This document shows positions 3,382 to 25,551 of a stretch of DNA of 64,000 nucleotides, one piece after another. This DNA is from an uncultured Rivularia sp. (GTDB taxonomy: Bacteria > Cyanobacteriota > Cyanobacteriia > Cyanobacteriales > Nostocaceae), in the NCBI GenBank assembly GCA_963665115.1, contig OY762007.1, positions 1,696,001 through 1,760,000 of the forward strand, given 5' to 3'. Position numbers and translations under genes: made by a program. The first letter of the stretch is position 1. The number at the start of each line of letters is the position of its first letter. The notes below the pieces were generated by a model that did no database searches, was not told the origin of the DNA, and saw only the letters and a list, made by a program, of their open reading frames with translations.

Positions 3382-6300
3382 GTTTCCAACTAATCCGAAT
3401 TAACCCAATCGGTGGGGAAGTAAATTCTTTCTTTAAGGCTGGATTAAAGGAGAGTTTCCAACTAATCCGAATTAACCCAATCGGTGGGGAGTTCTCCAAT
3501 AACATCTAACTGCACTGTATAGTACAGTTTCCAACTAATCCGAATTAACCCAATCGGTGGGGCATACCCAATTAACGGGAATATATTGCCTGAATAAAGT
3601 TTCCAACTAATCCGAATTAACCCAATCGGTGGGGAAACTGTCGCAAGAAATGCTGCTTTTGCTCTTATTGAAAAGTTTCCAACTAATCCGAATTAACCCA
3701 ATCGGTGGGGTTTTGATGGAGACATTGAAATCACTGAAGGATACGAGTGTTTCCAACTAATCCGAATTAACCCAATCGGTGGGGTGGCTAAGTTCAATTC
3801 TATTCGCAGCATCTTTTGTTTCCAACTAATCCGAATTAACCCAATCGGTGGGGTTTTAACATCTAACTAAAAAACAAATTTGCTCGGTTTCCAACTAATC
3901 CGAATTAACCCAATCGGTGGGGAACTTTTTTAACGACAAGAACAACGCTGTTAAGGTTTCCAACTAATCCGAATTAACCCAATCGGTGGGGTATCCCTGC
4001 AAATTTTGTGGGGTGACTACGGACAAAAGTTTCCAACTAATCCGAATTAACCCAATCGGTGGGGTCGTTTCTTAAAGAACGAAAATAATCAAAAGAGAAT
4101 AGTTTCCAACTAATCCGAATTAACCCAATCGGTGGGGATTTCTTAAAAAGAAATCACATACACGCCAATTTATGTTTCCAACTAATCCGAATTAACCCAA
4201 TCGGTGGGGAAGAGAATCATTGAAAAGTTTGAAAATAACGAAAGTTTCCAACTAATCCGAATTAACCCAATCGGTGGGGGAGAATTAATTCTTCCAGCGA
4301 CAGAAATGGAAATGGATCGTTTCCAACTAATCCGAATTAACCCAATCGGTGGGGTAAGAGACAAGAAAGATATAGCGGAAGAAATTAATAAAGTTTCCAA
4401 CTAATCCGAATTAACCCAATCGGTGGGGTGTTCCCAGCAGTTTCAAACCCTAGTCTCTCGTAAAAAGTTTCCAACTAATCCGAATTAACCCAATCGGTGG
4501 GGTAATTTCAATTTTTCTGAGAAGTTAGAATCTGTTAGTTCGTTTCCAACTAATCCGAATTAACCCAATCGGTGGGGGTCGTTCTTCTGTAGGAAGAGGT
4601 ATTCCAGAATATAAAGTTTCCAACTAATCCGAATTAACCCAATCGGTGGGGTCTTTTCAGAAGCCAATAGATGTGATGGAATTCGTAATGTTTCCAACTA
4701 ATCCGAATTAACCCAATCGGTGGGGTGGTGTTCACCGTATGTTTTTAGTAAATAAAGCTAATGTTTCCAACTAATCCGAATTAACCCAATCGGTGGGGTT
4801 TGTTAGAAAAAAGCAGCCACGTGGTTGCTTTAGAGTTTCCAACTAATCCGAATTAACCCAATCGGTGGGGAAATATAATAGCGGTAAAACAGTTCCGAAT
4901 TCTAATGTTTCCAACTAATCCGAATTAACCCAATCGGTGGGGAATATGGTGAAATTTCTTTTACAGAAATTAAAGATAGTTTCCAACTAATCCGAATTAA
5001 CCCAATCGGTGGGGAAAGACAAAAGAGGAAGTCTTAGACTTTCCACCTAACGGTTTCCAACTAATCCGAATTAACCCAATCGGTGGGGGGCTGTTTGAAA
5101 AACAGCATAAGTCGAGGTCAGTTAGAGTTTCCAACTAATCCGAATTAACCCAATCGGTGGGGGGAGTCAGCCACTGAGGCGACTCCGGCAACTATAACGT
5201 TTCCAACTAATCCGAATTAACCCAATCGGTGGGGGCAGCCAGAATCAAAAAGGCAGCAAGTCCGGAGGATAGTTTCCAACTAATCCGAATTAACCCAATC
5301 GGTGGGGTTTTTTTGTTTATCAGTTGCATAGTCTGTATTCATCAGTTTCCAACTAATCCGAATTAACCCAATCGGTGGGGTACAACATTTTGGCAGTATT
5401 TACTACTGCGGCTTTTAGTTTCCAACTAATCCGAATTAACCCAATCGGTGGGGCGAAAGGATAACACGAGTAATATTGTATTATAGGGAAAGTTTCCAAC
5501 TAATCCGAATTAACCCAATCGGTGGGGTAACATTTTCGCTTTTTCCTAACTAGCTAACTTGTTTCCAACTAATCCGAATTAACCCAATCGGTGGGGATCT
5601 GGCGCTCCTGCAAGGACAGGATTAGTCAACATGTTTCCAACTAATCCGAATTAACCCAATCGGTGGGGGCTTTGGTTTTTGCGTCTTTGTTTCTTTCTAT
5701 TTTCGTTTCCAACTAATCCGAATTAACCCAATCGGTGGGGCAGTCAAAATGCGAATTGGAATGCGAACTGGAAAGTTTCCAACTAATCCGAATTAACCCA
5801 ATCGGTGGGAAAAAAATTTGCTAAGTGAATAACGAAAAAAACGAAAACAGTTTCCAACTAATCCGAATTAACCCAATCGGTGGGGGATTGTTTGTTTCAA
5901 TTTTACGAAGGCAAGTACAAGTAAGTTTCCAACTAATCCGAATTAACCCAATCGGTGGGGCACTTATCTTTAAGGATTTGCTAAAATGTCTAACGTTTCC
6001 AACTAATCCGAATTAACCCAATCGGTGGGGAAAAATTTGACGAAGCATTAGAATTAGCAAGAAAGTTTCCAACTAATCCGAATTAACCCAATCGGTGGGG
6101 AAAAAGATTCTGAAAAAGAGGCTCTTGCCTCTTTGAAGTTTCCAACTAATCCGAATTAACCCAATCGGTGGGGCTCACATTTTTCTGTCTTCATTTGATT
6201 AGCTAACGTTTCCAACTAATCCGAATTAACCCAATCGGTGGGGCGGTTTGTATTGATGGAAATTGTGCAGGATTTTAAAGTTTCCAACTAATCCGAATTA

Positions 6301-9300
6301 ACCCAATCGGTGGGGCAGAAGGGGAAAACATTTTCTTCTCTGAAAAAGAGAAAAAGTTTCCAACTAATCCGAATTAACCCAATCGGTGGGGGATCAAAAA
6401 GATTCTGAAAAAGAGGCTCTTGCCTCTTTGAGTTTCCAACTAATCCGAATTAACCCAATCGGTGGGGTTTTTCAATATATTTGTTAAATGCTGGCGGATA
6501 TTTAGGTTTCCAACTAATCCGAATTAACCCAATCGGTGGGGAATTCGTGGAATTGAAGTTTTAAAAAGCTACCGTTTCGTTTCCAACTAATCCGAATTAA
6601 CCCAATCGGTGGGGGTTCCCCGTTGTATTTACAGGAGGATTCACCAAGTTTCCAACTAATCCGAATTAACCCAATCGGTGGGGACAGTATTGAAAAAATC
6701 TCTAAGTCAGATATAAAAGTTTCCAACTAATCCGAATTAACCCAATCGGTGGGGGATAAATGTTTTCAAGATAGGAGGGTATTTCCAACGTTTCCAACTA
6801 ATCCGAATTAACCCAATCGGTGGGGCTGAAGAAAAAAAAGAAGAATGCGAACCTAAGGCACAGTTTCCAACTAATCCGAATTAACCCAATCGGTGGGGCA
6901 ATATTCAAAACATGGGTTTTGGTATTGGACAAAGAAAAAGTTTCCAACTAATCCGAATTAACCCAATCGGTGGGGAAACTGAAGAAGAAGTTGAAACTGA
7001 AGCTGAAGAAGAGTTTCCAACTAATCCGAATTAACCCAATCGGTGGGGCAAGGGGTCGTGATGTTGGCGTGCCTCACACACCTCAAGTTTCCAACTAATC
7101 CGAATTAACCCAATCGGTGGGGATTTCATCTATTTGCTTACTTAAAAGCAATGCATAGTTTCCAACTAATCCGAATTAACCCAATCGGTGGGGATTGGGC
7201 ATGAGAGATAACTGAGAGAACCACCAAGGTTTCCAACTAATCCGAATTAACCCAATCGGTGGGGAAACTTTATCTTTATTTTGGGGAATTCTGCTTTAAA
7301 GTTTCCAACTAATCCGAATTAACCCAATCGGTGGGGTGCAAAACCAGGTCAGCGAGGCTATGAACCTCCCAGTTTCCAACTAATCCGAATTAACCCAATC
7401 GGTGGGGAAAACTAAAAGGGAAGCATATAGTTGGCAGTAAAGTTTCCAACTAATCCGAATTAACCCAATCGGTGGGGAATACGACAATCGTAGGTTTGCA
7501 AACTATGCAGTTTCCAACTAATCCGAATTAACCCAATCGGTGGGGGTGAATTAGAAGCAATGGCTTCCGGTTCATCTGATTTGGTTTCCAACTAATCCGA
7601 ATTAACCCAATCGGTGGGGTCTAATAGTGGAAATGTAAGCATTAGCGGCAATAATAGTTTCCAACTAATCCGAATTAACCCAATCGGTGGGGTAGTGGAA
7701 ACGGAATGAATGTAACGCAAATTAACGTTTCCAACTAATCCGAATTAACCCAATCGGTGGGGCGACGGCTATAGCAGTAAAGTTTCATGGGGTACTTGTG
7801 TTTCCAACTAATCCGAATTAACCCAATCGGTGGGGAAGCACTGAGAACCAGTTCAAAAAGTTTGATACTAATGTTTCCAACTAATCCGAATTAACCCAAT
7901 CGGTGGGGTCCAACAAGATTACATTAATTAACCATGTAACAAAAGTTTCCAACTAATCCGAATTAACCCAATCGGTGGGGTAGATGAAAATAATCTAGCA
8001 CATCTTGCTATAATAATGTTTCCAACTAATCCGAATTAACCCAATCGGTGGGGATGGCACCTTAAGCCTGGTAAATCTGAATATTGGGTGTTTCCAACTA
8101 ATCCGAATTAACCCAATCGGTGGGGTGTTGAACTGGGGAGGTGTGTTGCTGCCAGTAAGGTTTCCAACTAATCCGAATTAACCCAATCGGTGGGGTAGAG
8201 ACGATGTAGTTTATTTTTTAAAGGATTGTTTCCAACTAATCCGAATTAACCCAATCGGTGGGGTTTCCTTTTGGGTAGGTTCTGAAAAGATAACATTCCA
8301 GGTTTCCAACTAATCCGAATTAACCCAATCGGTGGGGATGGGTAAATTAGGACATAGGGAAACCTGTGTTCAAGGTTTCCAACTAATCCGAATTAACCCA
8401 ATCGGTGGGGTGTAAGTAACATTAACTCCTATTAGTTTATTAATGTTTCCAACTAATCCGAATTAACCCAATCGGTGGGGACATGGTTAAAGAAGCTGAC
8501 GGTCGCTGCATGAACGTTTCCAACTAATCCGAATTAACCCAATCGGTGGGGTTGCTCATCATTACGTGAAAAAGTAACGGTGTGATAAGGTTTCCAACTA
8601 ATCCGAATTAACCCAATCGGTGGGGAAAGAGCAAGAGTTACAAGTCATGGTTTATAAGATAAAGTTTCCAACTAATCCGAATTAACCCAATCGGTGGGGG
8701 ATTGAAAGATATAAAGCAAAAAATTGAGTTAGTTGAAAGTTTCCAACTAATCCGAATTAACCCAATCGGTGGGGAAACGGAGCGAAAGTTCCAAAAGTCT
8801 TAGTTACTGGAGTTTCCAACTAATCCGAATTAACCCAATCGGTGGGGGTTCAAAACAGAATTGCGCTTTTTTCTTTGTTTTCGTTTCCAACTAATCCGAA
8901 TTAACCCAATCGGTGGGGAAACAAATTTATCTGAGAGCTACAAACGCATTTGTTTCCAACTAATCCGAATTAACCCAATCGGTGGGGTGGTTTAATTAGT
9001 CTAGCAGTAGCATCCGCACGTAATAGTGTTTCCAACTAATCCGAATTAACCCAATCGGTGGGGAAACAGCCCAAGAGACCTGAAAGACGACCAATAAACG
9101 TTTCCAACTAATCCGAATTAACCCAATCGGTGGGGTTGATGAAAATAAGATGTATAACTGCCAACGGAGTAGTTTCCAACTAATCCGAATTAACCCAATC
9201 GGTGGGGTTTTTATTGCTTCTTTCGTAATTTTCAATCATCAGTTCCGTTTCCAACTAATCCGAATTAACCCAATCGGTGGGGTTATTTTACAGAAAGACG

Positions 9301-9858
9301 GAGTAATCATAATGATTAGTTTCCAACTAATCCGAATTAACCCAATCGGTGGGGGAGAAAACTCTATAATGCTTGCAAAAGCATAATAGGTTTCCAACTA
9401 ATCCGAATTAACCCAATCGGTGGGGAGAGATTATATTTTCAATGGAAAGAAGGTTGGAGAGTTTCCAACTAATCCGAATTAACCCAATCGGTGGGGTTTT
9501 TTATAATAATAAAAACAACTATGGTTGATAAGTTTCCAACTAATCCGAATTAACCCAATCGGTGGGGGGTTCACGCTTCTTCTGCTCGTGCAGAAGAGGG
9601 AAAGTTTCCAACTAATCCGAATTAACCCAATCGGTGGGGCGTCTCTACGCAAATTGGTGTGTAAAATTCTTTAAGTTTCCAACTAATCCGAATTAACCCA
9701 ATCGGTGGGGGTCGCTTCTGTTTTGACTATTGCTCAGGTGAATATTGAAGTTTCCAACTAATCCGAATTAACCCAATCGGTGGGGTGCTAAGTTTTTCTA
9801 TGAAAGCTTAGAAAGCATTAAAGTTTCCAACTAATCCGAATTAACCCAATCGGTGGGG
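3382..9858 (-). CRISPR. CRISPR array, about 90 repeats and 89 spacers (manual count); 36-nt repeat CCCCACCGATTGGGTTAATTCGGATTAGTTGGAAAC; type III-like
   Basis: Near-identical 36-nt repeats with 32-41 nt spacers; the GAAAC 3' end and the leader next to cas2 give minus-strand orientation. Confidence 0.99.
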
Positions 9859-10077: not shown

Positions 10078-10359
10078 CTATATGACATAATAGTTTGGTG
10101 GCTCTTGAGGATGTTCGCTACCAATAGTTAACACTCTGGAAACAGCATCTTCAGAAATCCAATAAAATCGCACGTTATCCTCAGATGGCTTGACAATTTT
10201 TTTCGATTTCTCAAAAAGTTGTCGCATTTCATCTAAATTTAAAAAGCATTCAAATACAGAAAATTGTACTCTTTGCCCGTAACCCTCTAAAAAGTTAGAT
10301 AATTTAGTGCGTCTTTTATCATTAGGAATATCATATACAACAACCACTAACATCTTCAA
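10078..10359 (-). CDS. cas2: CRISPR-associated endoribonuclease Cas2
   Basis: VVVYDIPNDKRR and GQRVQFSVFEC motifs. Confidence 0.97.
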   Translation of the reverse strand: MKMLVVVVYDIPNDKRRTKLSNFLEGYGQRVQFSVFECFLNLDEMRQLFEKSKKIVKPSEDNVRFYWISEDAVSRVLTIGSEHPQEPPNYYVI

Positions 10360-10456: not shown

Positions 10457-10828
10457 TTATTTTTGTTTAAGTTTATTAATCGAAGATACTAATACCTTAA
10501 TAATTTCTTCATTTTCTTGTATCATATTGTTGAATTTGGATTTCAGCACTAATTCTGATTTAATCATTATTTTTATCCAATAAAGAGTCTCATTAGCTTC
10601 TTTCAAGGCTATAGAATACTTGTTGATAAAATCTGCGTTTGATTGAGCATACTTAGCTTCCGAACAGTTTGCTCCTATTGATGTTCCACTTCTTAAAAAT
10701 TGCTTAGATAATACCTTACCCGCATCGTCAAAAGGTCTTTTATTTAGTTCGCAATAAGCTTTGATAACTCTGATAGCAAAATTTTCTGTTCTTTCTTGAA
10801 TACTAATATTACCCTTATGATTAACCAT
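10457..10828 (-). CDS. Four-helix bundle protein (23S rRNA IVP / TIGR02436 family)
   Basis: QFLRSGTSIGANCSEA and DFINKYSIALKEANETLYW motifs. Confidence 0.92.
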   Translation of the reverse strand: MVNHKGNISIQERTENFAIRVIKAYCELNKRPFDDAGKVLSKQFLRSGTSIGANCSEAKYAQSNADFINKYSIALKEANETLYWIKIMIKSELVLKSKFNNMIQENEEIIKVLVSSINKLKQK

Positions 10829-10891: not shown

Positions 10892-11036
10892 ACTTCTTAC
10901 TTCTTACTTCTTACTTCTTACTCATTACTTCTTACTTCTTACTTCTTACTTCTTACTTCTTACTTCTTACTCATTACTTCTTACTTCTTACTTCTTACTT
11001 CTTACTCATTACTTCTTACTTCTTACTTCTTACTTC
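10892..11036. repeat. (CTTACTT) x ~20 heptamer tract, right arm of cassette 1
   Basis: Seen directly; abuts the cas1 stop codon. Confidence 0.95.
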
Positions 11037-12159
11037 AGTCTGCTCTTAGGTAAGATTCATAGATAATATCAGATAATAAACAGCGCTTATATCTCCTAAC
11101 TTGTAATTGAATTGCATGTCGATATGTTACTTGAGAAATTAAATCTGGATGAGAAATTTCTTCATTCATGCGATTTTCAAACTGTTTCAGAAAAACTCTT
11201 CTAGCAGTTTGACTTAAATAAACTCCTCCTGTGGTTGCGACGACATCAAAGTCTTTCGGTTTAAATTCACTATTATTAATTACTTTTAAAACCAAACTAT
11301 CAACAATAGGAGAACGAAATTCTTCCATTAAATCAAAAGCTAAATATGTTTTTTGCTTATCACCATAATGAAAATGACCGATATATGGTGAAAGTCCTTC
11401 GGTAATAATAAAGCTGAGTACATTATTAAATAAAAGTGTATAGCCAAAACTCAATAATGAATTTATCTCATCGGTGGGAGGCTGCCGAAATCTCTGAGAA
11501 AAACTAAATTTAGGATTAGTAATTAAATTCCCAAAGGCTGGAAAATATCTAGCAGCAGCAATTCCTTCATAACCGCGCAAAGTATCTAAGTTATCAACAT
11601 AATTCAAAGCATCAATATCTTGATTAATTCCATAGATAGCTTCTTCTACTTTTCCTATTTTGCGTCTGCGATTAAATCGCATCAATAATTGTTTGGAATT
11701 CAATAATTTACCTAAAACAACCGCTCTTGATACGCTAAATCGAAATAAATCATCATTACGTCTTTCTACTTGAACTAATTGATTATCCAGATGAATAGAT
11801 TTTTCGCTCCATAAGTGACCATGATATGTACCAGTTTGACTGAGAAATACCACGGGAATTTGTTCTTTTAAACAAGCTTGAATTACTGGAGTTGATAATT
11901 GAATATTACCGAATACTATAATTTGCTCTACTTCCCGAATCGGAACTTCAAGCTTCGGTTTTTCTGAGACATGAATAATAAACCGCTGATAATCTTTATA
12001 GATATTTGTTCCTTGTTCAATTAAGTATATAGCCGCCATTTCTTGATTCCAAATATTTTTTTGAAAAGGACTATCATCCTCTGCTGTTTGTGGAGGTTTT
12101 TCCGTGATTGTTTCGGCAAAATATGGTTTGTGTAGATAACGTATATTTTCATAACCCAA
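11035..12159 (-). CDS. cas1: CRISPR-associated endonuclease Cas1 (core starts at Met 12039; frame open up to 12249)
   Basis: LRGYEGIAAARYF, NSLLSFGYTLL and LAFDLMEEFRSPIVD motifs. Confidence 0.97.
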   Translation of the reverse strand: MGYENIRYLHKPYFAETITEKPPQTAEDDSPFQKNIWNQEMAAIYLIEQGTNIYKDYQRFIIHVSEKPKLEVPIREVEQIIVFGNIQLSTPVIQACLKEQIPVVFLSQTGTYHGHLWSEKSIHLDNQLVQVERRNDDLFRFSVSRAVVLGKLLNSKQLLMRFNRRRKIGKVEEAIYGINQDIDALNYVDNLDTLRGYEGIAAARYFPAFGNLITNPKFSFSQRFRQPPTDEINSLLSFGYTLLFNNVLSFIITEGLSPYIGHFHYGDKQKTYLAFDLMEEFRSPIVDSLVLKVINNSEFKPKDFDVVATTGGVYLSQTARRVFLKQFENRMNEEISHPDLISQVTYRHAIQLQVRRYKRCLLSDIIYESYLRAD

Positions 12160-12203
12160 ACCAGCAAAACCGTTAGTTATTGAATTAGAAGCTTCAGCTA
12201 ATT

Positions 12204-13166
12204 CTAAACTGCTTTCTTCTTTCGATATTGGTTGCGATAGACTTTTTTTTTACTAGTTTTTCTAGTTCTCGTTTTCTCGCGATTGTTTTCAATAGCTGAC
12301 CTTAATTTAGCTTTATTTGTATCTACAGGGAAAATTGCATCTTCTAAAAAACCATGACCTAAAAAACGAAAACCGCGTTCAAAGCTAGTAATTTGGGTTT
12401 TCTCGGTATTTATTTCTAACCCCATCGAATCCAATAAATCAATCACTTGCGATTTTGCGATCGCGATTCGTTCTTGACTAGTTGATAAAACCAAAAAATC
12501 ATCAGCATAACGCACGATTTCTAAATCACTAGCGCTAATAATTCCATCAAATTCATGGAGATAAATATTTGCCAAAATTGGAGAAATAACCGCACCTTGA
12601 GGAATACCTTTTTGAGGTAAGATTAGCCCTTCTCTAGTTTCCACACCAACCGAAATCCAAGCTTTAATTAAACATAAAATACCTGGGTGGTCAATATGTA
12701 ACCTTACCTGTTGTAACAAGCGATGATGGTCAATATTATCAAAAAACTTGACGATATCAGCATCCAAAACCCAGACATAACCCATGTCTCGCCAATCGGC
12801 TATTTTCTCTACCGCATTGATATAAGATAAATTAGGACGATAAGCAAAACTTACAGGTGAAAATTTCTCTTCCATTAACGGACTAATTACATTTAATAGA
12901 GCTTGCTGAACAATTCTGTCTCGAATAGTAGGAATTTTTAACTCTCTTTGGGAGCCATTTCTTTTGGGAATAATTACCTGCTTGCAAGGAGAAGGTTGAT
13001 AGCTACCATCAGCAACAGAATTCATTAACTGATAAATGTTAACCGTTTGATTGCTAGCAAAACTACTAATAGTTTCACCATCAACACCCGCACAACCGCG
13101 TTTATCAGCAACCTTTTCCCAAGCACGCTGAAAATTATTAATATCGATAAATAGACTGGAAATCAT
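12204..13166 (-). CDS. CRISPR-associated group II intron-like reverse transcriptase
   Basis: AGVDG, RELKIPTIRDRIVQ, DADIVKFFD, GIPQGAVISP, RYADD and FLG motifs; directly upstream of cas1. Confidence 0.96.
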   Translation of the reverse strand: MISSLFIDINNFQRAWEKVADKRGCAGVDGETISSFASNQTVNIYQLMNSVADGSYQPSPCKQVIIPKRNGSQRELKIPTIRDRIVQQALLNVISPLMEEKFSPVSFAYRPNLSYINAVEKIADWRDMGYVWVLDADIVKFFDNIDHHRLLQQVRLHIDHPGILCLIKAWISVGVETREGLILPQKGIPQGAVISPILANIYLHEFDGIISASDLEIVRYADDFLVLSTSQERIAIAKSQVIDLLDSMGLEINTEKTQITSFERGFRFLGHGFLEDAIFPVDTNKAKLRSAIENNREKTRTRKTSKKKVYRNQYRKKKAV

Positions 13167-13384: not shown

Positions 13385-13975
13385 TTAACTGTTAACTGAA
13401 AACTGCTCGACAATTCGCTTTAATTCTTGAACCATAAAAGAATCAGCATCAGCTTTCAAAAATAATTGCAATAAAGTCTGGTAGTACCATAATGTTCCTT
13501 CTTTACCACCTTTAAATTTTCCCCAAGTAGATTCACCATTGTTAGATAAATCTCTCAAAATACTGCGAGCGTTATGCAATTTGTCAGCTAGCGATACCTT
13601 ACGAATAGAAGCAGAAGCACCACGCAAATTATCAATATATTGCTGTTTGCGCTGCAACCAAGGAGGTTTTGGTATAGTATTCGTATCGCTGCAACCATCA
13701 ACTATTTCCGCAACTTTTAGTCCAAACATATCAAAAATTACTTCACGAGTTGCTTGTCCTCCTTGGTCTTCTACTGCATCATGTAATAATGCAGCGATAG
13801 CTTCATCTTCATCACCACCATCTTCTAACACCAATGCAGTAACGCTTAAAAGATGACTAATATACGGAATATTGCTTCCCTTCCTTATTTGTTCGCGATG
13901 TAATCTTGAAGCATAAACTAAAGCTTGTTCAAAACGATTTGTTAAAAAATATTTTTGTGTTGTGTTTAAATTCAT
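13385..13975 (-). CDS. HD-domain protein, MESH1/SpoT-hydrolase-like
   Basis: HREQIRKG..PYISH, AALLHDAVED and VSLADKLHN motifs. Confidence 0.88.
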   Translation of the reverse strand: MNLNTTQKYFLTNRFEQALVYASRLHREQIRKGSNIPYISHLLSVTALVLEDGGDEDEAIAALLHDAVEDQGGQATREVIFDMFGLKVAEIVDGCSDTNTIPKPPWLQRKQQYIDNLRGASASIRKVSLADKLHNARSILRDLSNNGESTWGKFKGGKEGTLWYYQTLLQLFLKADADSFMVQELKRIVEQFSVNS

Positions 13976-14062: not shown

Positions 14063-15592
14063 TTATATATAAAGCTTATAAGTAGCTTCCATTTCTCTTC
14101 TCATTCTGTCTCTTAAATCCAAAGGAAAAATCACTTCAACATTTGGACACCAAGCTCGTAAACGCATGACAATATTATTGTCGTCAACTCGATAATCAAT
14201 TTTGCAATAAATATCGTATTCGGAACGAGATTGTACTGTAGAAATCAATTGTTTCTGTTCTAAAGATGCTTTTGGTGTGTAAGATTTAATCAGTTTTTCT
14301 ACCTGTTTACGGGTAATTTTATGAAACATATCATCTCTTTCTGTTCCTTCGATATAATTACCGTAAAAATATTGGTCAAATCTTAGTATTAATAATGCTT
14401 GGGGTTTATGAATATCAAATCCCCAAACTGCTGACATTTTATCTTTAATTTCATCTGGATTTGGTGGATATTTACCGTAACATTTATCTAAAAAGTGTTT
14501 GGGTATATCAAGGTTATCTGCATTAGAATCTAATTTATTTAATTCATCTAAATTAATAATTTTATCAAGTCGATAGTCATACCAATCTATTTTACTCCAA
14601 GGATTCTTCCTGTTTGACTGAGGAATTTGACCATAAGCAAATAAATAAGGTGCGCGTTTATAGTAATAAATACAGACTGGATAAACAATACAATCAATTG
14701 TTTCTTGATATAGTTTAGCGCTACGATAGTTTAATTTAACTAATGGTACTTTGTCCCTTTTCCAAAGACTTTTTATTTTCTGCTGCAATAGCTCTATATG
14801 TTCGTTTAAACTTGAATGAACTATATATTCTGCATGAATAAAAAATCTTTGTATACCGTTAATAGGTTGTGAAAGAGAATTATTAAAAGCTGATAATTCA
14901 TGATTTGTGAATTGTTCTGAGGTAATTTCTTTGTTCTTCAGAGAACTTAAGAAAACTTCCGGGAATCGATTTACTTTTGTATATATAACTTTGCCACTAT
15001 ATTTTTTGATATTTAACCAACCTAAATTTACTAAAGATTGAAAATCGTGGTCTTTTAAATTACGAGCAGTAACTGCAAACAAACGTCCTTCTGGTAACGA
15101 TTTGGAAAATTTTTTATTAACAGTTAACGATTTTACTTCTGATTGCATGTGTTGAGATTTATTTTTAGCTATTCCACCTTGGAGTAGATTATTTAGTTCA
15201 TCACCTTCAAAAGAATAATATTTTTTTAGCGATTGACACCAGCGGTTTTCATCAATTCTTAAACTTGATTCAAACAACCATTGCTTTAGTTTAATAGCAC
15301 ATCGACATTCTTCTTTGATAAAATCTTGGTTTAACTCATTTAGGCTATGTAAGCTTGGTATACAATCACGTTTATGATATTTCTTAGCATCAATAAAAAA
15401 TAAATCGCGCCATTCTAAAAAACTAAACTCTTCTTTCAAGTCTAATTTTACTTCATCACTTTCATCCCCATAAATAGAACGTAAGATAACCCATAACCTT
15501 ACAGCTTTTGCTAAATTTTGCTTCAGAGAACCTGCTGTTAATATCTTGAGAACTTCAACACTAGGAGGATAGTTAAAAACTTCTCTCTTCAT
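14063..15592 (-). CDS. CRISPR-associated WYL-domain protein (TIGR03985-like)
   Basis: LKQNLAKAVRLWVIL, VYPVCIYYYKRAPYL, WYDYRLDKI and MRLRAWCPNVEV motifs. Confidence 0.8.
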   Translation of the reverse strand: MKREVFNYPPSVEVLKILTAGSLKQNLAKAVRLWVILRSIYGDESDEVKLDLKEEFSFLEWRDLFFIDAKKYHKRDCIPSLHSLNELNQDFIKEECRCAIKLKQWLFESSLRIDENRWCQSLKKYYSFEGDELNNLLQGGIAKNKSQHMQSEVKSLTVNKKFSKSLPEGRLFAVTARNLKDHDFQSLVNLGWLNIKKYSGKVIYTKVNRFPEVFLSSLKNKEITSEQFTNHELSAFNNSLSQPINGIQRFFIHAEYIVHSSLNEHIELLQQKIKSLWKRDKVPLVKLNYRSAKLYQETIDCIVYPVCIYYYKRAPYLFAYGQIPQSNRKNPWSKIDWYDYRLDKIINLDELNKLDSNADNLDIPKHFLDKCYGKYPPNPDEIKDKMSAVWGFDIHKPQALLILRFDQYFYGNYIEGTERDDMFHKITRKQVEKLIKSYTPKASLEQKQLISTVQSRSEYDIYCKIDYRVDDNNIVMRLRAWCPNVEVIFPLDLRDRMRREMEATYKLYI

Positions 15593-16139: not shown

Positions 16140-16213
16140 GTAGGGTGCTGTGACGGTTACAGAAATTTTCTATTATGAAAATGATAATTGCCGTCTTACC
16201 GTCACGCACCAAT
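16140..16213. repeat. GTAG-type REP-like element, copy 2
   Basis: GGTGCTGTGACGG...CCGTCACGCACC hairpin. Confidence 0.7.
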
Positions 16214-16271
16214 ATGACTTCATTCCTCGATAAAATTCCCCAATCGCAATTAACTTGATATCATATGTACT

Positions 16272-16418
16272 TGTCTGTATATAGTCGTCTATGAAATGGT
16301 TCATTTAGTACAACAAAATCACAACCGAGACTTTTGGGATAGAGTAGAGAGAATTTTACCCGATTGGGAAGAACGAAAAGAATGGTTAGCGAAAAATGGC
16401 GCGGTTTTTACGCTGTAA
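16272..16418 (+). pseudogene. C-terminal remnant of a YgjP/M48-like metallopeptidase
   Basis: Manual translation YIVVYEMVHLVQQNHNRDFWDRVERILPDWEERKEWL; HExxH degenerate; N-terminal part absent. Confidence 0.7.
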
Positions 16419-16439
16419 TTGATTTTGGAAAGTGGTTCT

Positions 16440-16703
16440 TCAACTTTTATCTCGGTAAACTTCCCGACGATGTTTTACTTTAACGACAGTCACTAATAAA
16501 ATATCATCATATATTTGGTAAATAATTCGATAATCACCGACTCTAATACGATACAAATCATCATCCTGTAACTTTTTAACCCCACTTGGGCGAGGTTCTA
16601 TTGCTAATTCTTGAATTTTTGCATCTATTCGTTCTTTAATATCTTTTGGTAGTTTTTTGAGTTGCTTTGATGCACCCTTAGTCAATTCAACTTGATAATT
16701 CAC
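16440..16703 (-). CDS. RelE/ParE family toxin
   Basis: PRPSGVKKL and YRIRVGDYRIIY motifs. Confidence 0.92.
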   Translation of the reverse strand: MNYQVELTKGASKQLKKLPKDIKERIDAKIQELAIEPRPSGVKKLQDDDLYRIRVGDYRIIYQIYDDILLVTVVKVKHRREVYRDKS

Positions 16704-16897
16704 GCAGTTTCTCTCTTATATTCTTCCCATGAGATTGTTCCGTTTCTCTTCGCATCTGCTAATTGGGCACGAGCATCTCTAATGTCTTCTTCATCTTCTA
16801 ATAGTTCTAAAACTTTTTCTAAAGTACTTTCGGGTGCTATATCCAAATGTGCGGATATTAATTGAATTAAATCTTGACGTTTTGTTTTAGTTTCCAT
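16700..16897 (-). CDS. Putative antitoxin
   Basis: Acidic 65-aa protein overlapping the toxin start; EDEEDIRDA...TISWEE. Confidence 0.75.
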   Translation of the reverse strand: METKTKRQDLIQLISAHLDIAPESTLEKVLELLEDEEDIRDARAQLADAKRNGTISWEEYKRETA

Positions 16898-16992
16898 AGC
16901 TATTTATGTTTATTTCCTAAAGGTTATTATAGACTCATTAATAGCAAGATATTGTACGTTACTTATTTTACCCAATCTAAATCTATGTTTGG

Positions 16993-17307
16993 TTGAAAAA
17001 AATTAATGCTTACAAACAAGTGTTGATTTCAACAAGCAACCATAATAATTGGGGGAAAATAATGATTCAAGCAATTGATTCAGAACAGGTATTCGTTTCA
17101 AACTTAGAACAGTTCATCAGTAAAGCTGACAAATTTATCAAAATATATTATTCGGGTGTCAGTGATGAAAATCACGTTCAAGAAATAGTACAAGAATTGA
17201 AAAATTTAATATTAGATACCGACTTGAAACAATTGGAAATTGATTACCAGAACTATTGTGAAATTAAAGACTTGATGGGGGATTGGGATGAATCGGCTTG
17301 GTTTTGA
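16993..17307 (+). CDS. Hypothetical protein (probable start near 17062)
   Basis: ORF track only. Confidence 0.45.
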   Translation: MKKINAYKQVLISTSNHNNWGKIMIQAIDSEQVFVSNLEQFISKADKFIKIYYSGVSDENHVQEIVQELKNLILDTDLKQLEIDYQNYCEIKDLMGDWDESAWF

Positions 17308-17326
17308 ATGGGTGTGAAAGGTTGAT

Positions 17327-20300
17327 TTAGTTTTCTACCGCACCTAATGCTTTGAGCGTAGAGATTTCGGCTTCGGTTAAGCCTTTGACACCTGTGATGT
17401 TCATGCGTTCGTAAGGGCGATCGCTCTTTAGTGTTTTTAGACATTCGCCAGTTTTAATGTCCCAAAGTTTTGTAGTTTCATCCATGCTATAACTACCAAG
17501 AGTTTTACCATCAGGACTAAATGTAACTGACCTTACCGAATTGGTATGCCCTTCTAGAGTATGAACACATTTTCCGTTATTAATATCCCAAAGCCTTGCG
17601 GTTAAGTCGCGGCTCCCACTAGCAAGCGTATTACCATCGGGACTAAATGCAATTGTATGTACGCGATCCAAGTGACCCCTCAAAAGTATGGACACATTTA
17701 CCAGTTGCAATATTCCATAGCTTTATAGTTTCGTCATCACTCCCACTAGCAAGCGTGCTGCCATCTGGACTAAATGCTAATGAGCATATTTCATTAATAT
17801 GTCCTTCTAAAGTTTTAATCAGTTTTCCAAGACTAACATCCCATAACTTTATAATTAGGTCATAACCTGCACAGGCAAGAATTTTACTATCTGGACTAAA
17901 AGTAACTGAATTAACCCAGTCTGTATCTCCCTGCAAGGTATGAACACATTCTCCTGTCAAAACATTCCACAGCTTTACTACTGCATCATGATCTCCACTC
18001 GCAAGAATTTTACCATCTGGACTAAATGCTAATGAATTTATCCAATTCGTGTCTGAATGCAAAGTATGCACACATTTTCCAGTACTAAGATGCCAGAGTT
18101 TTATTGTTGAATCATAATCCCCACTCGCAAGAATTTTACCATCTGCACTGAAAGCAACTGCTCTTACCACACTACTGTGCCCTTCATAAGTATGAACACA
18201 TTCTCTGTTAGCAATATTCCATAATCTTACAGTTGGCTCACCACTACCACTAACAAACTTCTTAAAATCTGGACTAAAGGCAATGGCTCTTACTAAATTA
18301 GTATGTCTTTGCAAAGTATATAGGCATTTTTTTGTAGAAACATCCCATAACTTTATAATTTGGTTATAACCAGCACTAGCAAATATCTTGCCATCTGGAC
18401 TAAAAGCAACGGCATTCACCGAACTGGTATGTCCTTCTAAAATATGTAAGCATTTTCCAGTAGTATCCCAAAACCTTACTGTTTGGTCATCACTTCCACT
18501 AGCAATTATCTTGCAATCTGGGCTAAAAGCTACTGAATCTATTCGATGAGTATGTCCTTGTAAAGTACAAACACATTCTCCGGTTGCAATATCCCACAAC
18601 TTTACAGTTTTATCAAAACTACCACTGGCAACTATCTTGTTATTAGAACTGAAAACAACTGAAGTTACTTTGTGAGTATGTCCTTTGAAAGTCTTAAGTA
18701 ATTTTTTAGTTGCAATATCCCATAATTTTACAGTTTTATCTCTACTACCACTAGCAATTATCTTGCCATCTGGGCTGAAAGTAACCGAGCATATCCTTAA
18801 CTCGTGCCCTTGCAAAGTTTGTAGACATTTTCCTGTTATGATATTGTTCCAAAATTTTAAAGTATTATCCGCACCGCAACTTGCGATTATTCTGCCATCT
18901 GGGCTAAAAGCGACGGAACTCACCCAATGAAAATGACCTTCTAAAATATAAACACATTCTCCAGTCACAATATTCCATAACCGGATAGTGCGATCTCCAC
19001 TGCAACTAGCAAGCATTTTGCCATCTGGGCTAAAAGCTAATGCATTTATCCAATGAGTATGTCCTCTACAAATTAAGATTTGTCTCCCATTGGCAGTGTC
19101 CCACAAACGAACCATATTGCTACTATCACCTGTAGCTAATAATTTACTGTCCGGACTAAATTCTACTGCTGTAACATCACCTAAATTACTAGTAAAAATG
19201 CAGTCAGCCAAATTCGCCTTTGCAAAATCAACACCGCTCAAACTCGCATCACTAAAATCCGCTCCTTTAACCACAGCAGCCGATAAATCCTTCCCTTCCA
19301 AACTTTCATTATCAAACTTCACTGCCAAAGTAGTTGCATTCCCGCCAATATAATCAACCTCCGCTTCGCTCTTACCCTTAGTCTCTTCAATTACCTTAAC
19401 CAGCGCTTCATTATCCCCCACCATTCCCAACATCAGATCCATCACCGCTAAAGTAAGTGGCGATCGCCCAAAATTTCCCCTCAATTTCTCCAAAGATTCT
19501 TTAGTAAATCCCTTTAATGGAGCAATCGCAATACAATTTCCCGAATTATCTAACTGTCGCTCAAAATAACCAGACCAAGTATAATCAACGGGTACAGCAG
19601 CCACATCCAAACAAGATTGTGAAGAAGCTAATTCCGTAAAATCATCAGCTAAAGCTCCCAACTCAGCCGCAAATTTATACGCTACAAAAAATTCCAATAA
19701 CGAACGATGAGCCGGAGTATAATCTCCATTAGCATTACGAATCAGCATCGTTTGCCCCATCATATCGTAATGCCAATGATCCAAGTCATTTTGTTCTTGC
19801 ACCATAGAACCAAATAAGCGCCGAATCCTATCGGGAAACAACTTATAGTTAATGCTCATTTGGTCGCTCGAAAGCATTTCCCAAGATAGTTCGCACAAGA
19901 AATACAGCTTATCTGCCAAGGAAGTAAATGTGCGTTCGGCTTTGATATCCCGCTCCATCTTTCGTCGCACTGCATACAAATAAACCCGCGACATATCCAC
20001 AGGTTTACCCGCTTCAATATCTGGTAATGCTTCTAAAATTAAATCGGTCATTACCGGACGACGAGCCAAGTCCAACAATTGCGGATTGCCCATCACTTGG
20101 TCAACCGTTGCGGCTTCCGCTTGATGTAACAATACTTGTCTTATTTGCTCGTCGTTGAATTTCTCCAATTCCAACACTTCAAACTGGGGTGTTTCTCCGG
20201 TTAAGTTTTTAGTAGAAGCTTGTAACTCTGCGTTCAGTAAAGCCCGTCCTTCTTGAGCTTCGGGAAAATGTTCCGTGCGACAAGTTAAAATCACCTTGGC

Positions 20301-21792
20301 ACCCGGAACCACAACCTTAGCCAGTTCCCAGAAATTATTAATCATCTGCTGACGGTCAACTTTTGCAGCCATTTCGTCAAAACCGTCAAAAATTAGCAGC
20401 AGCTTACCCATGCGGTTCAACTGGTCGAAGACATCGCTATTTATGCGGATATTATGCTGAGTAAAAAAGAACCCAGCCAAAACATTTTCTACATTCAAAG
20501 CTTTAGCAAAATCCCGCAATGTAATTACTACAGGTAAACGGGGACGCTCTAAACCTCTTTTTTGAGCATCTTTGTAGCGCTGTAATGCAGTCCAAGCATA
20601 GTGAAAAGCAAACCAGGTTTTACCAGTACCGAATTCACCCAATATAGAAATATGCTCCTTTGCGGGGGTCATCCAACCATAAATCAATATAGCCATCAAT
20701 CCAACCGTCTTCTTCTTCATAACGGCTTACACCTATGCGTCGTTTAGTAACTGGGTCAAGTTCTTCCTTAGTACAGGCTAAAGGTACATACTTAGTATCA
20801 ACCTTTCGGCGTTTAATTTCCGCTTCCAACCAATTAACATAACCGCTAAAATCAGCATCAAGGTCAATCAGTTCGTCAAAAGTATAGCAATCAAGAAAAC
20901 GGTTTTCTTCCTTCTTAACCTCATCCCGCGCTGCTCTAGAAATTCGACGAGTAGTTACCAACCAACCTTCATCAGTTTTTTGTTCCTGCACCGAAGAACG
21001 CAAAGCCATAACATCGCTAAGTCCGATTTCTCCAGCAATTCCACGTACTAAGATGCGGTCAAAACTACGTCTTACAGGAATGTTAATGATAAATTCAAAA
21101 TACTCTTCTGCCCAAACTTCATGATTTTCAAAGCTATAACCTAAAGTTTCAAACCAACCGCGCATTTGTTGAGCTAATGCTATGGCTCTGCATTGATTTT
21201 CAGACGTTACCTGTAACGTCTCTACATTCTTGTCGGGTAATGCTGGATAATTCTGTGCTGCTAATCGTGCAATTTCTGTACGAATACCTTCTAAAGTCGG
21301 CATTCTATCAAGCTGCTCTTGAATATTTTTGATACTTGTATGTAAAGAACCAATTTGCTGGCTCATCATCGTATCTGCTGGGTTGCGGGTAAGTCTAACG
21401 ACTTGCGAAAACACGATGTAAAACGCTGCAATTTCCCGCTTGATATCAACTCTCAAACTTTTGATTTCATCACCCAAAGCATAAGCATCGACAAAAGCAT
21501 CTACCTCAGACAGCAATATTGAAGGGTTATTGTGGTCAAATGCTTTGCGAAACGCTGCTTTAATTTCTTGTTGACGAAACAACTCAAGAATGGGCTGTGG
21601 CTTACCAACACCATATTCTACAAGAGTATAAGCATATACCCCGCTAAAATCTCCCGGTGGATGCTCTGGGTCAATTTTAAACTGCTTAAGTAATTTAATT
21701 ACAGTTTCATTACGCTGAACCTTTTCTTTAATCACAGGTTGAGCGATGCCACTAATTGCTTTAAACAGCAAATCCAGATTAATTAGGCTCAT
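17327..21792 (-). pseudogene. NACHT NTPase + pentapeptide + WD40-repeat protein (~1490 aa), split by two +1 frameshifts (real or assembly error)
   Basis: GEFGTGKT Walker A, LIFDGFDEM Walker B, many GH...WD repeats; extra base in homopolymer runs at 20664-20668 and 17676-17679. Confidence 0.88.
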
Positions 21793-23230
21793 GGAAAGAG
21801 ATTGCGGTAAACAAAGGGTGTTGTAACTGTCAGCAGTTATTACCATTAAAAATTATACACCGCAATATCTTGGTCTAACTTTATACTTTTTCAATGATTT
21901 ATTTAAGTGGATATAGAAATAAAACATACACCTTGAAATAATAGTACGCAATTACTAAATTGTTGACAATAATTACTTCCGAAATCGCAAAGATTTAGTA
22001 TAATATTTGCGCCATCTTCCAAAAAGCAATGTAAGCGCGCATATCAAGTTAACCCACAACAAATAAACGCTACTCCCAACTCCGAATCAATCATGGGAGT
22101 GGTTGAACGCTTGACCTATCACTCCGAAGAGTCGGGTTATACGGTAGCGCGGTTACAGCGTCCAAGGGTATCGGAATTAACTACCATTACGGGCAGCTTT
22201 GCAGGTATTCAGCCCGGACAAACGCTTCAACTTAATGGTTTCTGGCGCGAACATCCCTGCGGACGGTTTGCAATTTCAAGTTACCAACTACAAGGAAACT
22301 AAACCAGCAACAATCACGGGAATCGAAAAGTATTTAGGTAGCGGATTAATTAAAGGAGTTGGTCCGGTAACAGCAAAACGTATCGTTGCTCATTTCGGTA
22401 CAGAAACTCTCGATATTATTGACAATCAAATCGAGCGATTGCAAGAAGTGAATGGCATTGCGAAGAAACGTATTGCCATGATTCAGAAAGCTTGGAAGGA
22501 GCAACGAGCCATAAAAGAAGTGATGGTATTTCTTCAAAGTCATGGTGTCTCAACAACCTACGCGGTGAAGATTTACAAACATTACGGTGATTTGGCAATC
22601 AATAAAGTTAACGAAAATCCTTACCAGCTAGCAACCGATATTTATGGAATTGGGTTTCTCACTGCTGATAAAATTGCTCGTAATTTGGGGGTTCCTCCAG
22701 ATTCGGAATTTAGATATAAAGCTGGTATTATCCACGTTTTAAGCGAAGCAGCAGATTCAGGACATTGTTATTTACCGCAACCGGAGTTAATACAACAGCT
22801 TTGTGAAAAACTAAAAACTGACGAACATCAACCACAAGAGGATGGATTAACAAAAGTCATCAGCGATATGTCTCTCAGCGATGAATTAATTAGAGAACGT
22901 GATGCTGATAAAGTATTACTCTGCTACAAACCAACCTTCTTCCATACCGAACAAAACCTAGCGCAACTTATACTTTCTCGTTTGCATCAAACGATAAATA
23001 CAGATATACCTCGCGTTCATAATTGGTTGGAGCGTTTTAGCCAAAGCCGTAAAGTTTCATTATCAACGGAACAGCTACAAGCAGTTGAAACCGCAGCTTA
23101 CTCAAAAATCATGGTAATCACTGGTGGTCCCGGTGTCGGTAAAACGTTTTGTACCCGGACTATTGTTTCATTATGGAAAGCGATGGGTAAATCAATCGCT
23201 CTAGCTGCACCAACTGGACGAGCTGCACAG

Positions 23231-23719
23231 AATAATTCGTAATTCGTAATTCGTAATTCGTAATTAATTAAGATTACATTTAAAAACTGAATATGAGATA
23301 ATTATTAATAGTTAATTGACATTATAAAGATGATTCATAATATTAGTATAACTGACAGAACTAAAAAGTTTGCAGTTAGAATTATAAAAGCTTGTTGCTT
23401 CCTAGATGAAAAACCAGGAGTTAATCGAATAATATCAAGCCAATTACTTCGTTCTGGAACATCTATTGGTGCTAATGTTCGAGAAGCACAATCGGCACAG
23501 TCTGATAAAGATTTTCTTAGTAAACTAGAAATCGCATTGAAAGAAGCAAGGGAAACTCAGTACTGGTTGGAAATTATAATTGAATCTGAGTTAGTAGAGA
23601 AATCTAAGTTTGATTCTTTACTTCAAGAAGCTAATGAAATTGGCAAGATATTAGTTTCTTCTACTAAAAAACTTAAACAGAAATAATTACGAATTACGAA
23701 TTACGAATTACGAATTATT
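23231..23719. mobile_element. Four-helix-bundle cassette with perfect 36-bp inverted heptamer arms
   Basis: AATAATT(CGTAATT)4A at 23231-23266 and its exact reverse complement at 23684-23719. Confidence 0.8.
23330..23686 (+). CDS. Four-helix bundle protein (23S rRNA IVP family)
   Basis: QLLRSGTSIGANVREAQ and DFLSKLEIALKEARETQYW motifs. Confidence 0.93.
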   Translation: MIHNISITDRTKKFAVRIIKACCFLDEKPGVNRIISSQLLRSGTSIGANVREAQSAQSDKDFLSKLEIALKEARETQYWLEIIIESELVEKSKFDSLLQEANEIGKILVSSTKKLKQK

Positions 23720-24234
23720 TTGGTATGCTTGATTTATTTTTGGCATATTCATTATTTGAAGCGGTAGCGGATGATACGCAACTTCTCCTTGTTGGGGATA
23801 TAGATCAGCTGCCGTCAGTCGGTGCTGGTAACGTTTTGGCAGATTTAATTCATTCGGGTAAAGTTCCGGTAGTACGGCTCACCCAAGTCTTTCGTCAAGC
23901 TGCAAGTAGTAAAATTATTACCGCATCTCACCAAATAAATCGCGGACAATATCCTTTGATTGAAACAATTTCCGATACCCCCGAATCGGATTGTTTGTGG
24001 CATGGAGGAGGTTTTCAGCCGGAGCATGGGGTACAAGCAATTAGCGAGTTAATCACAGATTTAATTCCCAGACTTGGTTTTAATCCTGTGACTGATGTAC
24101 AAGTACTCGCACCAATGACGAGAGGTTTGGTTGGTACGCGCAATCTTAACAACGTACTGCAAAAACTCATTAATCCTCCTAGTCCCCAGAAGATAGAAGT
24201 AACAAGGGGTGGGATAATTTTTCGAGTTGGCGAT

Positions 24235-24262
24235 ACACCCGGAGGGTGTCGGCTTCGCCTAT
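24235..24262. mobile_element. 28-nt double-hairpin insertion into a HIP1 site (SDR5-like)
   Basis: GCGAT|ACACCCGGAGGGTGTCGGCTTCGCCTAT|CGC; removal restores GCGATCGC and the reading V-G-D-R-V-I-Q. Confidence 0.8.
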
Positions 24263-24757
24263 CGCGTTATTCAATTAACTAACGATTACCACCGGGAAGT
24301 TTTTAATGGGGATATGGGTTTTATTATTCATATTGACACTGAGGAACAGGAAGTTATCGTAAAATTTCAAGAACGTGATGTGATTTACGATTATGCCGAT
24401 TTAAACGAACTGGCCGTCTTCTTGGAGCGTTAGCATTCACAAATCCCAGGGTTCGGAATATCCGGTTGTATTTTTGCCACTATACTCGCAACATTTCGTA
24501 ATGTTGAGCAGGAATTTATTGTATACCGGCTTAACTCGTGCAAAGAAGTTAGCGATTATTATTGGTAGTAAGAAAGCGATAGGTATGTGCGTTCGTTCTA
24601 GAAAATCTCAGGAGCGATATACGCAGTTGAAGGAAAGGTTGATGAAAGTTTCTTGTATTCTAAATTAATTAACTAAAAGCTTTATTACAAAATTAAGATA
24701 ATAGGTTTTTAGACGTTAGATAATATCTACGACGGATATTTAAAGGAGATATTTAAC

Positions 24758-25551
24758 ATGGCTGCATCAACAAACTCATCTCCCGTTGATAAATTGATAA
24801 ACTATGGCGACATAAGCGAAATGGAAGCAACTCCCGATTATGTCAAAGAATTTGGCTTTAGTGCAGAACATATCCCCGAACTCATAAGTATGGCAGGTGA
24901 TAAAGAGTTAAACTTTGGGGATGTTGACAGCTTGGAAGTATGGGCACCAGTTCATGCTGTGCGCGCATTAGGTCAATTACGCGCCGAAGAAGCAATTGAA
25001 CCTTTAACTAATTTAATTCACGAACTTGATGATGATTGGATGAGTACAGAACTATCCAATTTCTTTGCTGAGATAGGACATAATGCAATTCCTGCACTCC
25101 AAAAGTATATAGGAGACTCTTCCCATGAAAGCTATGAACGTGCGGATGCTGCAATGTCTTTGACTCAAATCGTCGAGAAGCATCCAGAACTCCGCAATAA
25201 GTGTGTAACAATTTTAACAGGCGAATTAGAAATTTTGCAGATAATGACCCAGATTTAAACGCTTGTTTGGTTGGGGAACTGATTGATTTAAATGCAGTAG
25301 AGTCTGCACCCGTAATTGAACGTGCGTTTGCTGCGAATCAAGTTATACCTTATTTAGTGGGAGATTGGGGTGAAGTACAGGTATCTTTGGGGCTAAAAAC
25401 AAGAGAAGAAGTTCCAATACGTAGATTTTCGCCCCAAGAAATATTTGAGTACTACGGGTACAAAACGAAAGCACAAAAACCACTTGGCTTTGCTACTAAT
25501 TTAACAACAAAACAGAAGAAGAAAAATAAGAAAAGTAAAAAGCATAAGTAG
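24758..25551 (+). pseudogene. DUF1186/HEAT-like repeat protein with one frameshift near 25230
   Basis: WAPVHAVRALGQLRAEEAI motif; two overlapping ORFs that join if one A is added. Confidence 0.7.

Follow-up and report, generated by a model that had tools for sequence, protein, structure and literature searches.

RT-Cas1 fusions, in which a reverse transcriptase (RT) is joined to Cas1, take up spacers from RNA. At the CRISPR locus of an uncultured Rivularia sp. considered here, an RT gene and cas1 lie side by side in different reading frames, and the question that this locus raises is whether these are two genes or a single gene whose halves are joined during expression. The locus lies within a stretch of 64,000 nucleotides (positions 1,696,001 to 1,760,000 of contig OY762007.1), which we call the window and whose numbering is used throughout.

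In the accessible text of Silas et al. 2017 (PMC5513706), cases of split RT and cas1 are regarded as secondary fissions. The locus resembles RT-CRISPR clade 5 as described in the accessible parts of Toro et al. 2017 (PMC5541045), namely a cyanobacterial group II-like RT adjoining cas1, cas2 and an array. The window has an intact YADD RT next to cas1, cas2 and an array, and its gene order, gene sizes and repeat agree with the listed Rivularia member, for which the accessible supplement gives WYL, a 591-nt gene, a 963-nt RT, a 1005-nt cas1, cas2 and the repeat of the window. In the same accessible tables three of the eight clade-5 records, including one with the gene sizes and repeat of the present locus, appear as RT alone, whereas the window presents a candidate recoded RT-Cas1.

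In the mechanism that we propose, RT and cas1 would be one recoded gene spanning a conserved run of nine adenines (A9), on which RNA polymerase would slip and add an A in a fraction of transcripts. The output would be a 320-aa free RT and a 710-aa RT-Cas1 fusion, with stand-alone Cas1 made additionally from an invariant internal ATG; RT-bearing subunits would stay a minority in the Cas1-Cas2 integrase, so that uptake of RNA-derived spacers would be limited while DNA uptake continues. The production of the fusion, a transcriptional rather than a ribosomal slip, the stand-alone Cas1 and the low dose of RT in the integrase are the parts of this scheme that we infer.

The RT/cas1 junction and the frame break

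Read on the minus strand, the RT frame crosses the A9 run (12251-12243) as ACT AGT AAA AAA AAA GTC, continues for 12 sense codons and ends with TAG (12206-12204) as the 13th; the product of this 0 frame has a basic tail at its end. The cas1 frame is -1 relative to RT, and in it a TAG (12255) and a TAA (12252) overlap the start of A9, after which the frame is open for 210 nt (70 codons) up to the ATG at 12039 and onward to 11035. The original prediction had described exactly this geometry, with an RT frame that crosses A9 and stops 13 codons on and a cas1 frame that opens inside the run and stays open for 70 codons before the Cas1 Met, and had held that one extra A would give an RT-Cas1 of about 710 aa. 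The sequence bears out each of these points: A9 plus one A yields 2130 nt, or 710 codons, which equals the length of the naturally fused ORF in the orthologous loci L133 and L134. Among all runs of at least nine A or T in the 8.7-Mb genome, only at the one between RT and cas1 does a long upstream frame lead into a shifted frame that is likewise long. The features of the locus are collected in Table 1.

Table 1. Features of the RT-cas1 locus, in window coordinates
Feature	Position	Strand	Remarks
A9 slip site (predicted)	12243..12251	-	context GT-AAAAAAAAA-G; AAA AAA AAA in RT frame; kept in orthologues
TAG TAA stops of -1 frame	12250..12255	-	5' bound of shift window
RT-frame stop TAG	12204..12206	-	3' bound of shift window
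CRISPR RT, group II-intron-like, 320 aa, YADD	12204..13166	-	TIGR04416 E 3e-88 (just under cut-off), RVT_1
RT-Cas1 linker, 70 codons	12040..12249	-	coding in -1 (cas1) frame only
Linker motif LH[QK]P[FY]xAE, conserved	12112..12135	-	purifying selection in -1 frame
Cas1 core, 334 aa, from ATG	11035..12039	-	PF01867 E 3e-88
Four-helix-bundle (23S rRNA IVP family) gene, between cas1 and cas2	10457..10828	-	
cas2	10078..10359	-	
CRISPR array	3382..9858	.	89 exact 36-nt repeats and one variant copy; spacers 32-41 nt
HD-domain gene, upstream of RT	13385..13975	-	
TIGR03985 CRISPR-associated protein gene	14063..15592	-	

Directly past the array, outside the window, lie Cmr2/Cmr4/Cmr6-like type III genes (below model cut-offs), and this module has a DUF499 anti-phage-like gene and a ThiF/E1-like gene on either side (L151:1501-4752 and 16211-17404, respectively), flanks that suggest a defence island. 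A heptamer tandem repeat of the ACTTCTT type (10892-11036), similar copies of which occur all over related genomes, stands immediately past the cas1 stop. Elsewhere in the window a recD2-like helicase gene (22199-24282) is interrupted at 23330-23686 by a four-helix-bundle (IVP-like) gene, apparently of the same kind as that intervening between cas1 and cas2. Spacers compared with the host genome gave matches of 16-24 nt only, which is chance level; in a promoter/terminator scan, promoter-like sites did not rise above the level of shuffles, and between RT and cas1 no terminator was found on the minus strand.

An assembly error in place of a true A10, a caveat that accompanied the original prediction, is scarcely credible at this site. 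Contigs from the sequencing runs X1, X2 and X3, which share organism label and study and are possibly the source of this assembly itself, cross the site free of substitutions and gaps at depths of 220, 67 and 211; a contig from X4 differs by 76 substitutions and likewise has no gap, and the bridging contigs of X5-X8, from four other studies, carry substitutions and no indel at the site. The evidence from all eight runs consists of contigs, in which rare variants are dropped; wherever A9 was to be checked against A10 these give A9, never A10. The same break is found in dozens of independent assemblies, and the A9 frame break is confirmed as real rather than an assembly error. What would favour an error is that other frame breaks in or near the window, as judged from the sequence alone, sit at short C5 or T4 runs.

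Among the genes so broken, one of the NACHT-WD40 type that carries an NNH5/iREase domain at its N-terminus is divided into three ORFs (17327-21846), one of the breaks lying at a C5 run, and a HEAT-repeat gene forms two overlapping ORFs near a short T4/A run (24758-25551). In the adjacent type III module the cas10/cmr2-like gene is likewise broken, into two ORFs (L151:12872-14576); the break lies at a C5 run and could reflect either an assembly error or a genuine lesion.

Conservation of the run and of the linker

Orthologous loci were drawn from sets of 61, 401 and 401 genomes, one genome-contig scan and one metagenome-contig scan, and 108 distinct loci were left once duplicates and loci without RT or Cas1 had been dropped. 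In the first set 13 loci without RT or Cas1 and 17 duplicates were dropped, and in the later set 5 loci without cas1 and 10 duplicates; the loci dropped include L018-L030 (short repeat matches), L085-L109 (distant RTs) and L096. Among the five without cas1, L162 and L175 have an in-frame A9 and L190, near a contig end, has only A7. The tree comprises 105 loci, with three partial loci placed by similarity, and was rooted by midpoint and with the more distant fused loci.

A single branch (support 100) holds 82 of the 108 loci, namely 59 split at -1, 1 split at +1 and 22 fused, while the 26 outgroup loci are all fused and have no run of A7 or longer in the linker. It had been proposed that split cyanobacterial orthologues should share the run at the same point and in the same relative frame; they do so in 57 of the 59 -1 splits, which have A9 (49 loci) or A10 (8) within the overlap, down to 57% RT identity and across Nostocales, Coleofasciculaceae and Crocosphaera. 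The exceptions are L042, with a stop ahead of the run, and L077, with a truncated RT. Since these loci are kin, such counts overstate their independence. YADD is present in 49 of 50 split loci, the remaining one being partial. Of the first 48 split loci, 44 have G at -2, 46 have T at -1 and 46 have G or C after the run, and these positions are thus conserved while the flanks vary. The sole +1 split, L163, has A8 in a near-complete genome and would need minus one A or plus two.

Retention of the run goes beyond what the protein needs; a homopolymer of at least nine A/T is kept at the frame transition in those 57 of 59 loci. If the three codons turned over as AAA codons ordinarily do, 8.5 of 54 split loci would be expected to share all of them with the window, and the conserved Lys columns of RT and Cas1 are invariantly AAA in only 3 of 16. 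The genome avoids such runs: AAA AAA AAA accounts for 10 of 276 KKK tripeptides, though AAA makes up 76% of Lys codons, and coding A9 runs occur at 0.15, 0.27 and 0.19 of the expectation from synonymous shuffles in the three phases. The heptamers A_AAA_AAA and A_AAA_AAG in shorter runs are only mildly depleted (0.69 and 0.67 of expected), and the step from length 8 to length 9 brings a sharper drop in coding DNA (0.105) than in non-coding DNA (0.27). This genome-wide avoidance suggests that the cyanobacterial RNA polymerase slips at 9 A. The longest A/T runs in the 8.7-Mb genome have length 10, with 21 of that length and 202 of length 9.

The linker bears its own signs of translation. All 48 split loci tested keep the -1 frame open from the run to the Met, over 45-127 codons, where shuffles lead one to expect 0.37 such loci, and this frame contains KK[ST] and, about 32 codons ahead of the Met, LH[QK]P[FY]xAE. 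In 41 split loci the pN/pS of this motif block is 0.23 in the -1 frame against 1.05 and 2.03 in the other frames; by these measures the -1 frame from the run onward is open and under purifying selection. No conserved start codon was found upstream of the linker motif among the orthologues, and a frame shift is therefore the simplest route to it. Translational coupling, in which the second ORF would start about 20 nt from the stop of the first, does not suit the spacing, the core ATG lying 165 nt past the RT stop. A TTG at 12159 of the window was considered as a reason for a coding linker and rejected, as it is missing in close orthologues such as L003 and L007. In an AlphaFold model of the fused orthologue L133 (pTM 0.48) the RT and Cas1 parts are well folded and the linker, residues 284-377, has pLDDT below 50 and is predicted to be disordered.

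The history of the site may be read from the tree, on which the run maps to the single branch named above, the fused members are dispersed within the 82-locus clade and well-supported branches force at least 10 changes. Such a pattern agrees with a site gained once, in an ancestor that was fused, and with repeated re-fusion afterwards. Four fused loci (L038, L047, L074 and L080) carry the +1A form in their DNA as an in-frame A10, and the closest relatives of L074, L072 and L149, have A9 with identical flanks; in 15 other fused loci the frame is restored by an indel outside an unchanged A9. The close relatives L133 and L134 are fused via different compensating indels downstream of an intact A9, and the fusion in L134 reads about 12 codons of the former RT-frame tail. 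A9 or A10 is retained by 21 of the 22 fused clade members, where a rough turnover model expects 12.9-16.9; the fusions being undated and some of the loci sisters, this retention is only suggestive, and it hints at a need for two products regardless of which frame serves as the default.

Polymerase, ribosome or a switch in the DNA

The original prediction of a programmed RT-Cas1 fusion is strongly supported by the A9 of the contigs and by the run that split orthologues share in the same relative frame, and we consider it very likely, on comparative grounds, that the gene is recoded at the level of expression by one route or the other, polymerase or ribosome. RNA-polymerase slippage at A9, yielding free RT and RT-Cas1, is probably the route taken, since the run stays at nine or more while its codon phase varies and since no conserved ribosomal stimulator accompanies it. 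Every intact -1 split has at least 9 A, though 7 would suffice for the heptamer; the 57 sites are distributed 50/2/5 over phases 0/1/2, and in L182 the A9 contains just two AAA codons. Because phase is for the most part inherited, the few phase-shifted loci alone discriminate between the routes. According to the accessible part of a review of recoding (PMC5009743), a run of 9 As or Ts allows the bacterial polymerase to slip efficiently in vivo, and T. thermophilus dnaX exploits this.

The same products could be made by the ribosome, either by tandem -1 slippage of two tRNA-Lys on A_AAA_AAA or by sliding on three AAA codons aided by the basic nascent peptide. We hold this to be unlikely, though it deserves serious weight, for the heptamer is in frame at all 57 sites, three AAA codons are present at 54, the 15 codons upstream are 26% K/R, the genome encodes tRNA-Lys(UUU) as its sole tRNA-Lys, and E. 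coli ribosomes are known to slide on iterated AAA (accessible text of PMC4363877). The direction of the split, -1 in 59 of 60 loci and +1 only in the one with A8, points the same way, a single direction of shift being, in the accessible text of Antonov et al. (PMC3711429), a sign of ribosomal and not polymerase shifting. Set against this are the lengths of the runs themselves, as no intact split has A7 or A8, either of which would be sufficient for the heptamer; the heptamer A_AAA_AAG, seen in just 2 of 57 sites; and the genome-wide avoidance, which is independent of phase and steps down at 9. A conserved 3' hairpin was not found in 48 split loci (median folding z 0.13, 5 of 48 below -2), nor was a shared SD-like stimulator motif in a screen of 48 split loci run without a shuffled control.

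Polymerase slippage must also be weighed against a switch in the DNA itself, in which slipped-strand mispairing would alternate A9 (RT off Cas1) with A10 (fused) in populations, with no recoding at all. The original prediction had allowed for either a programmed or a phase-variable switch, and it is the former, expression-level recoding, that is favoured, phase variation being the less likely of the two. The run does mutate by one base, given the in-frame A10 in four loci and the A8 in one, and its length is polymorphic between species. Within the contigs of the eight sequencing runs no such polymorphism was seen, including no A10 contig in the three runs of depth 67-220 (contigs drop rare variants). 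Most lineages, moreover, have A9, the 15 fused loci with an outside indel left A9 unchanged, and the steady purifying selection on the linker better fits regular translation, all of which makes phase variation highly improbable.

Products, parallels and significance

The ATG of the Cas1 core (12039-12037) is present in 81 of 81 loci tested, in-frame outgroup fusions included, and it is less structured and shows stronger SD-like pairing than internal ATGs (median -3.3 against +0.4 kcal/mol). A dead RT accompanies an intact Cas1 in six of the first 64 clade loci; one locus of the extended set, L153, has a stop within Cas1. The invariance and SD-like bias of the ATG, together with those six loci, make it plausible that the ATG is an internal start for stand-alone Cas1. 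Cas1 can probably be made without the shift, and the presence of the array is therefore no proof of the fusion.

The properties of the ATG and the six dead RTs, along with published tables that annotate RT and cas1 as separate, would equally be expected of a true fission, with Cas1 translated from its own ATG and the linker and run surviving as relics. We give this account very little credence, as it leaves unexplained an open -1 linker under purifying selection with no conserved start, an invariant A9 otherwise avoided in the genome, and repeated re-fusion at the same spot.

For a recoded gene, the architecture of the integrase would be of consequence. The integrase consists of four Cas1 and two Cas2 subunits, and given this composition recoding would leave RT-bearing subunits in the minority. 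We suggest, tentatively, that a single transcript gives free RT, RT-Cas1 and stand-alone Cas1 in set ratios, that the two-product output is itself selected, since 21 of 22 re-fused members retain the run, and that a mixed integrase results whose RT content sets the entry of RNA into immune memory.

Known systems offer parallels. In T. thermophilus dnaX and in two-ORF dnaX genes with A9 or A10, as here, 9-10 A give a short and a long product, and single- and two-ORF orthologues exist (PMC5009743 and PMC3711429, accessible parts); in T. thermophilus, as those parts describe it, slippage is experimentally shown and sets replicase subunit ratios, whereas in RT-cas1 it is predicted and would join an RT to the CRISPR integrase. 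The OrfA/OrfAB genes of IS1, IS3 and IS630 (same sources, likewise in part) resemble RT-cas1 in making an upstream domain alone or fused to a downstream recombinase domain, thereby limiting risky DNA insertion; unlike them RT-cas1 is a host immune gene, in which neither an SD nor a hairpin was found conserved as a stimulator. Among solved structures, a profile built from the fused orthologues best matches Cas6-RT-Cas1 (PDB 7kft/7kfu; E 4e-102), which, unlike the RT-cas1 split, is constitutively fused in frame and has an additional Cas6 domain. Judged by comparison with these systems and among the orthologues, the frame switch of this RT-Cas1 adaptation gene is real, deeply conserved and probably programmed, and it combines two kinds already known.

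No published report of an RT-cas1 recoding site was found in the full-text literature covered, to which most subscription papers do not belong. The words 'frameshift' and 'slippage' are absent from the accessible main texts of PMC5541045, PMC5513706, PMC8632793 and PMC6013744, and 'CRISPR' is absent from the first 300,000 characters of the recoding review PMC5009743 and from the accessible text of PMC3711429. Mentions of frameshifts in PMC6753606 and 10.1101/2024.03.12.584598 concern broken or engineered genes, and the frameshift passages in the accessible part of a Synechocystis ribosome-profiling preprint concern prfB.

If the reading given here is true, this would be programmed recoding in a CRISPR adaptation gene, for which we found no published precedent, and the cyanobacterial 'RT-alone' and 'fission' records would be cryptic fusions, the separate pairs of the published tables being one recoded gene. 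Such a reading bears on the debate over a single or multiple origin of RT-Cas1. The loci would, furthermore, constitute a natural allelic series, comprising A9 split, A10 fused and downstream-compensated fused forms, which could be used to test the need for the RT-Cas1 fusion and the effect of RT dose on the uptake of spacers from RNA versus DNA.
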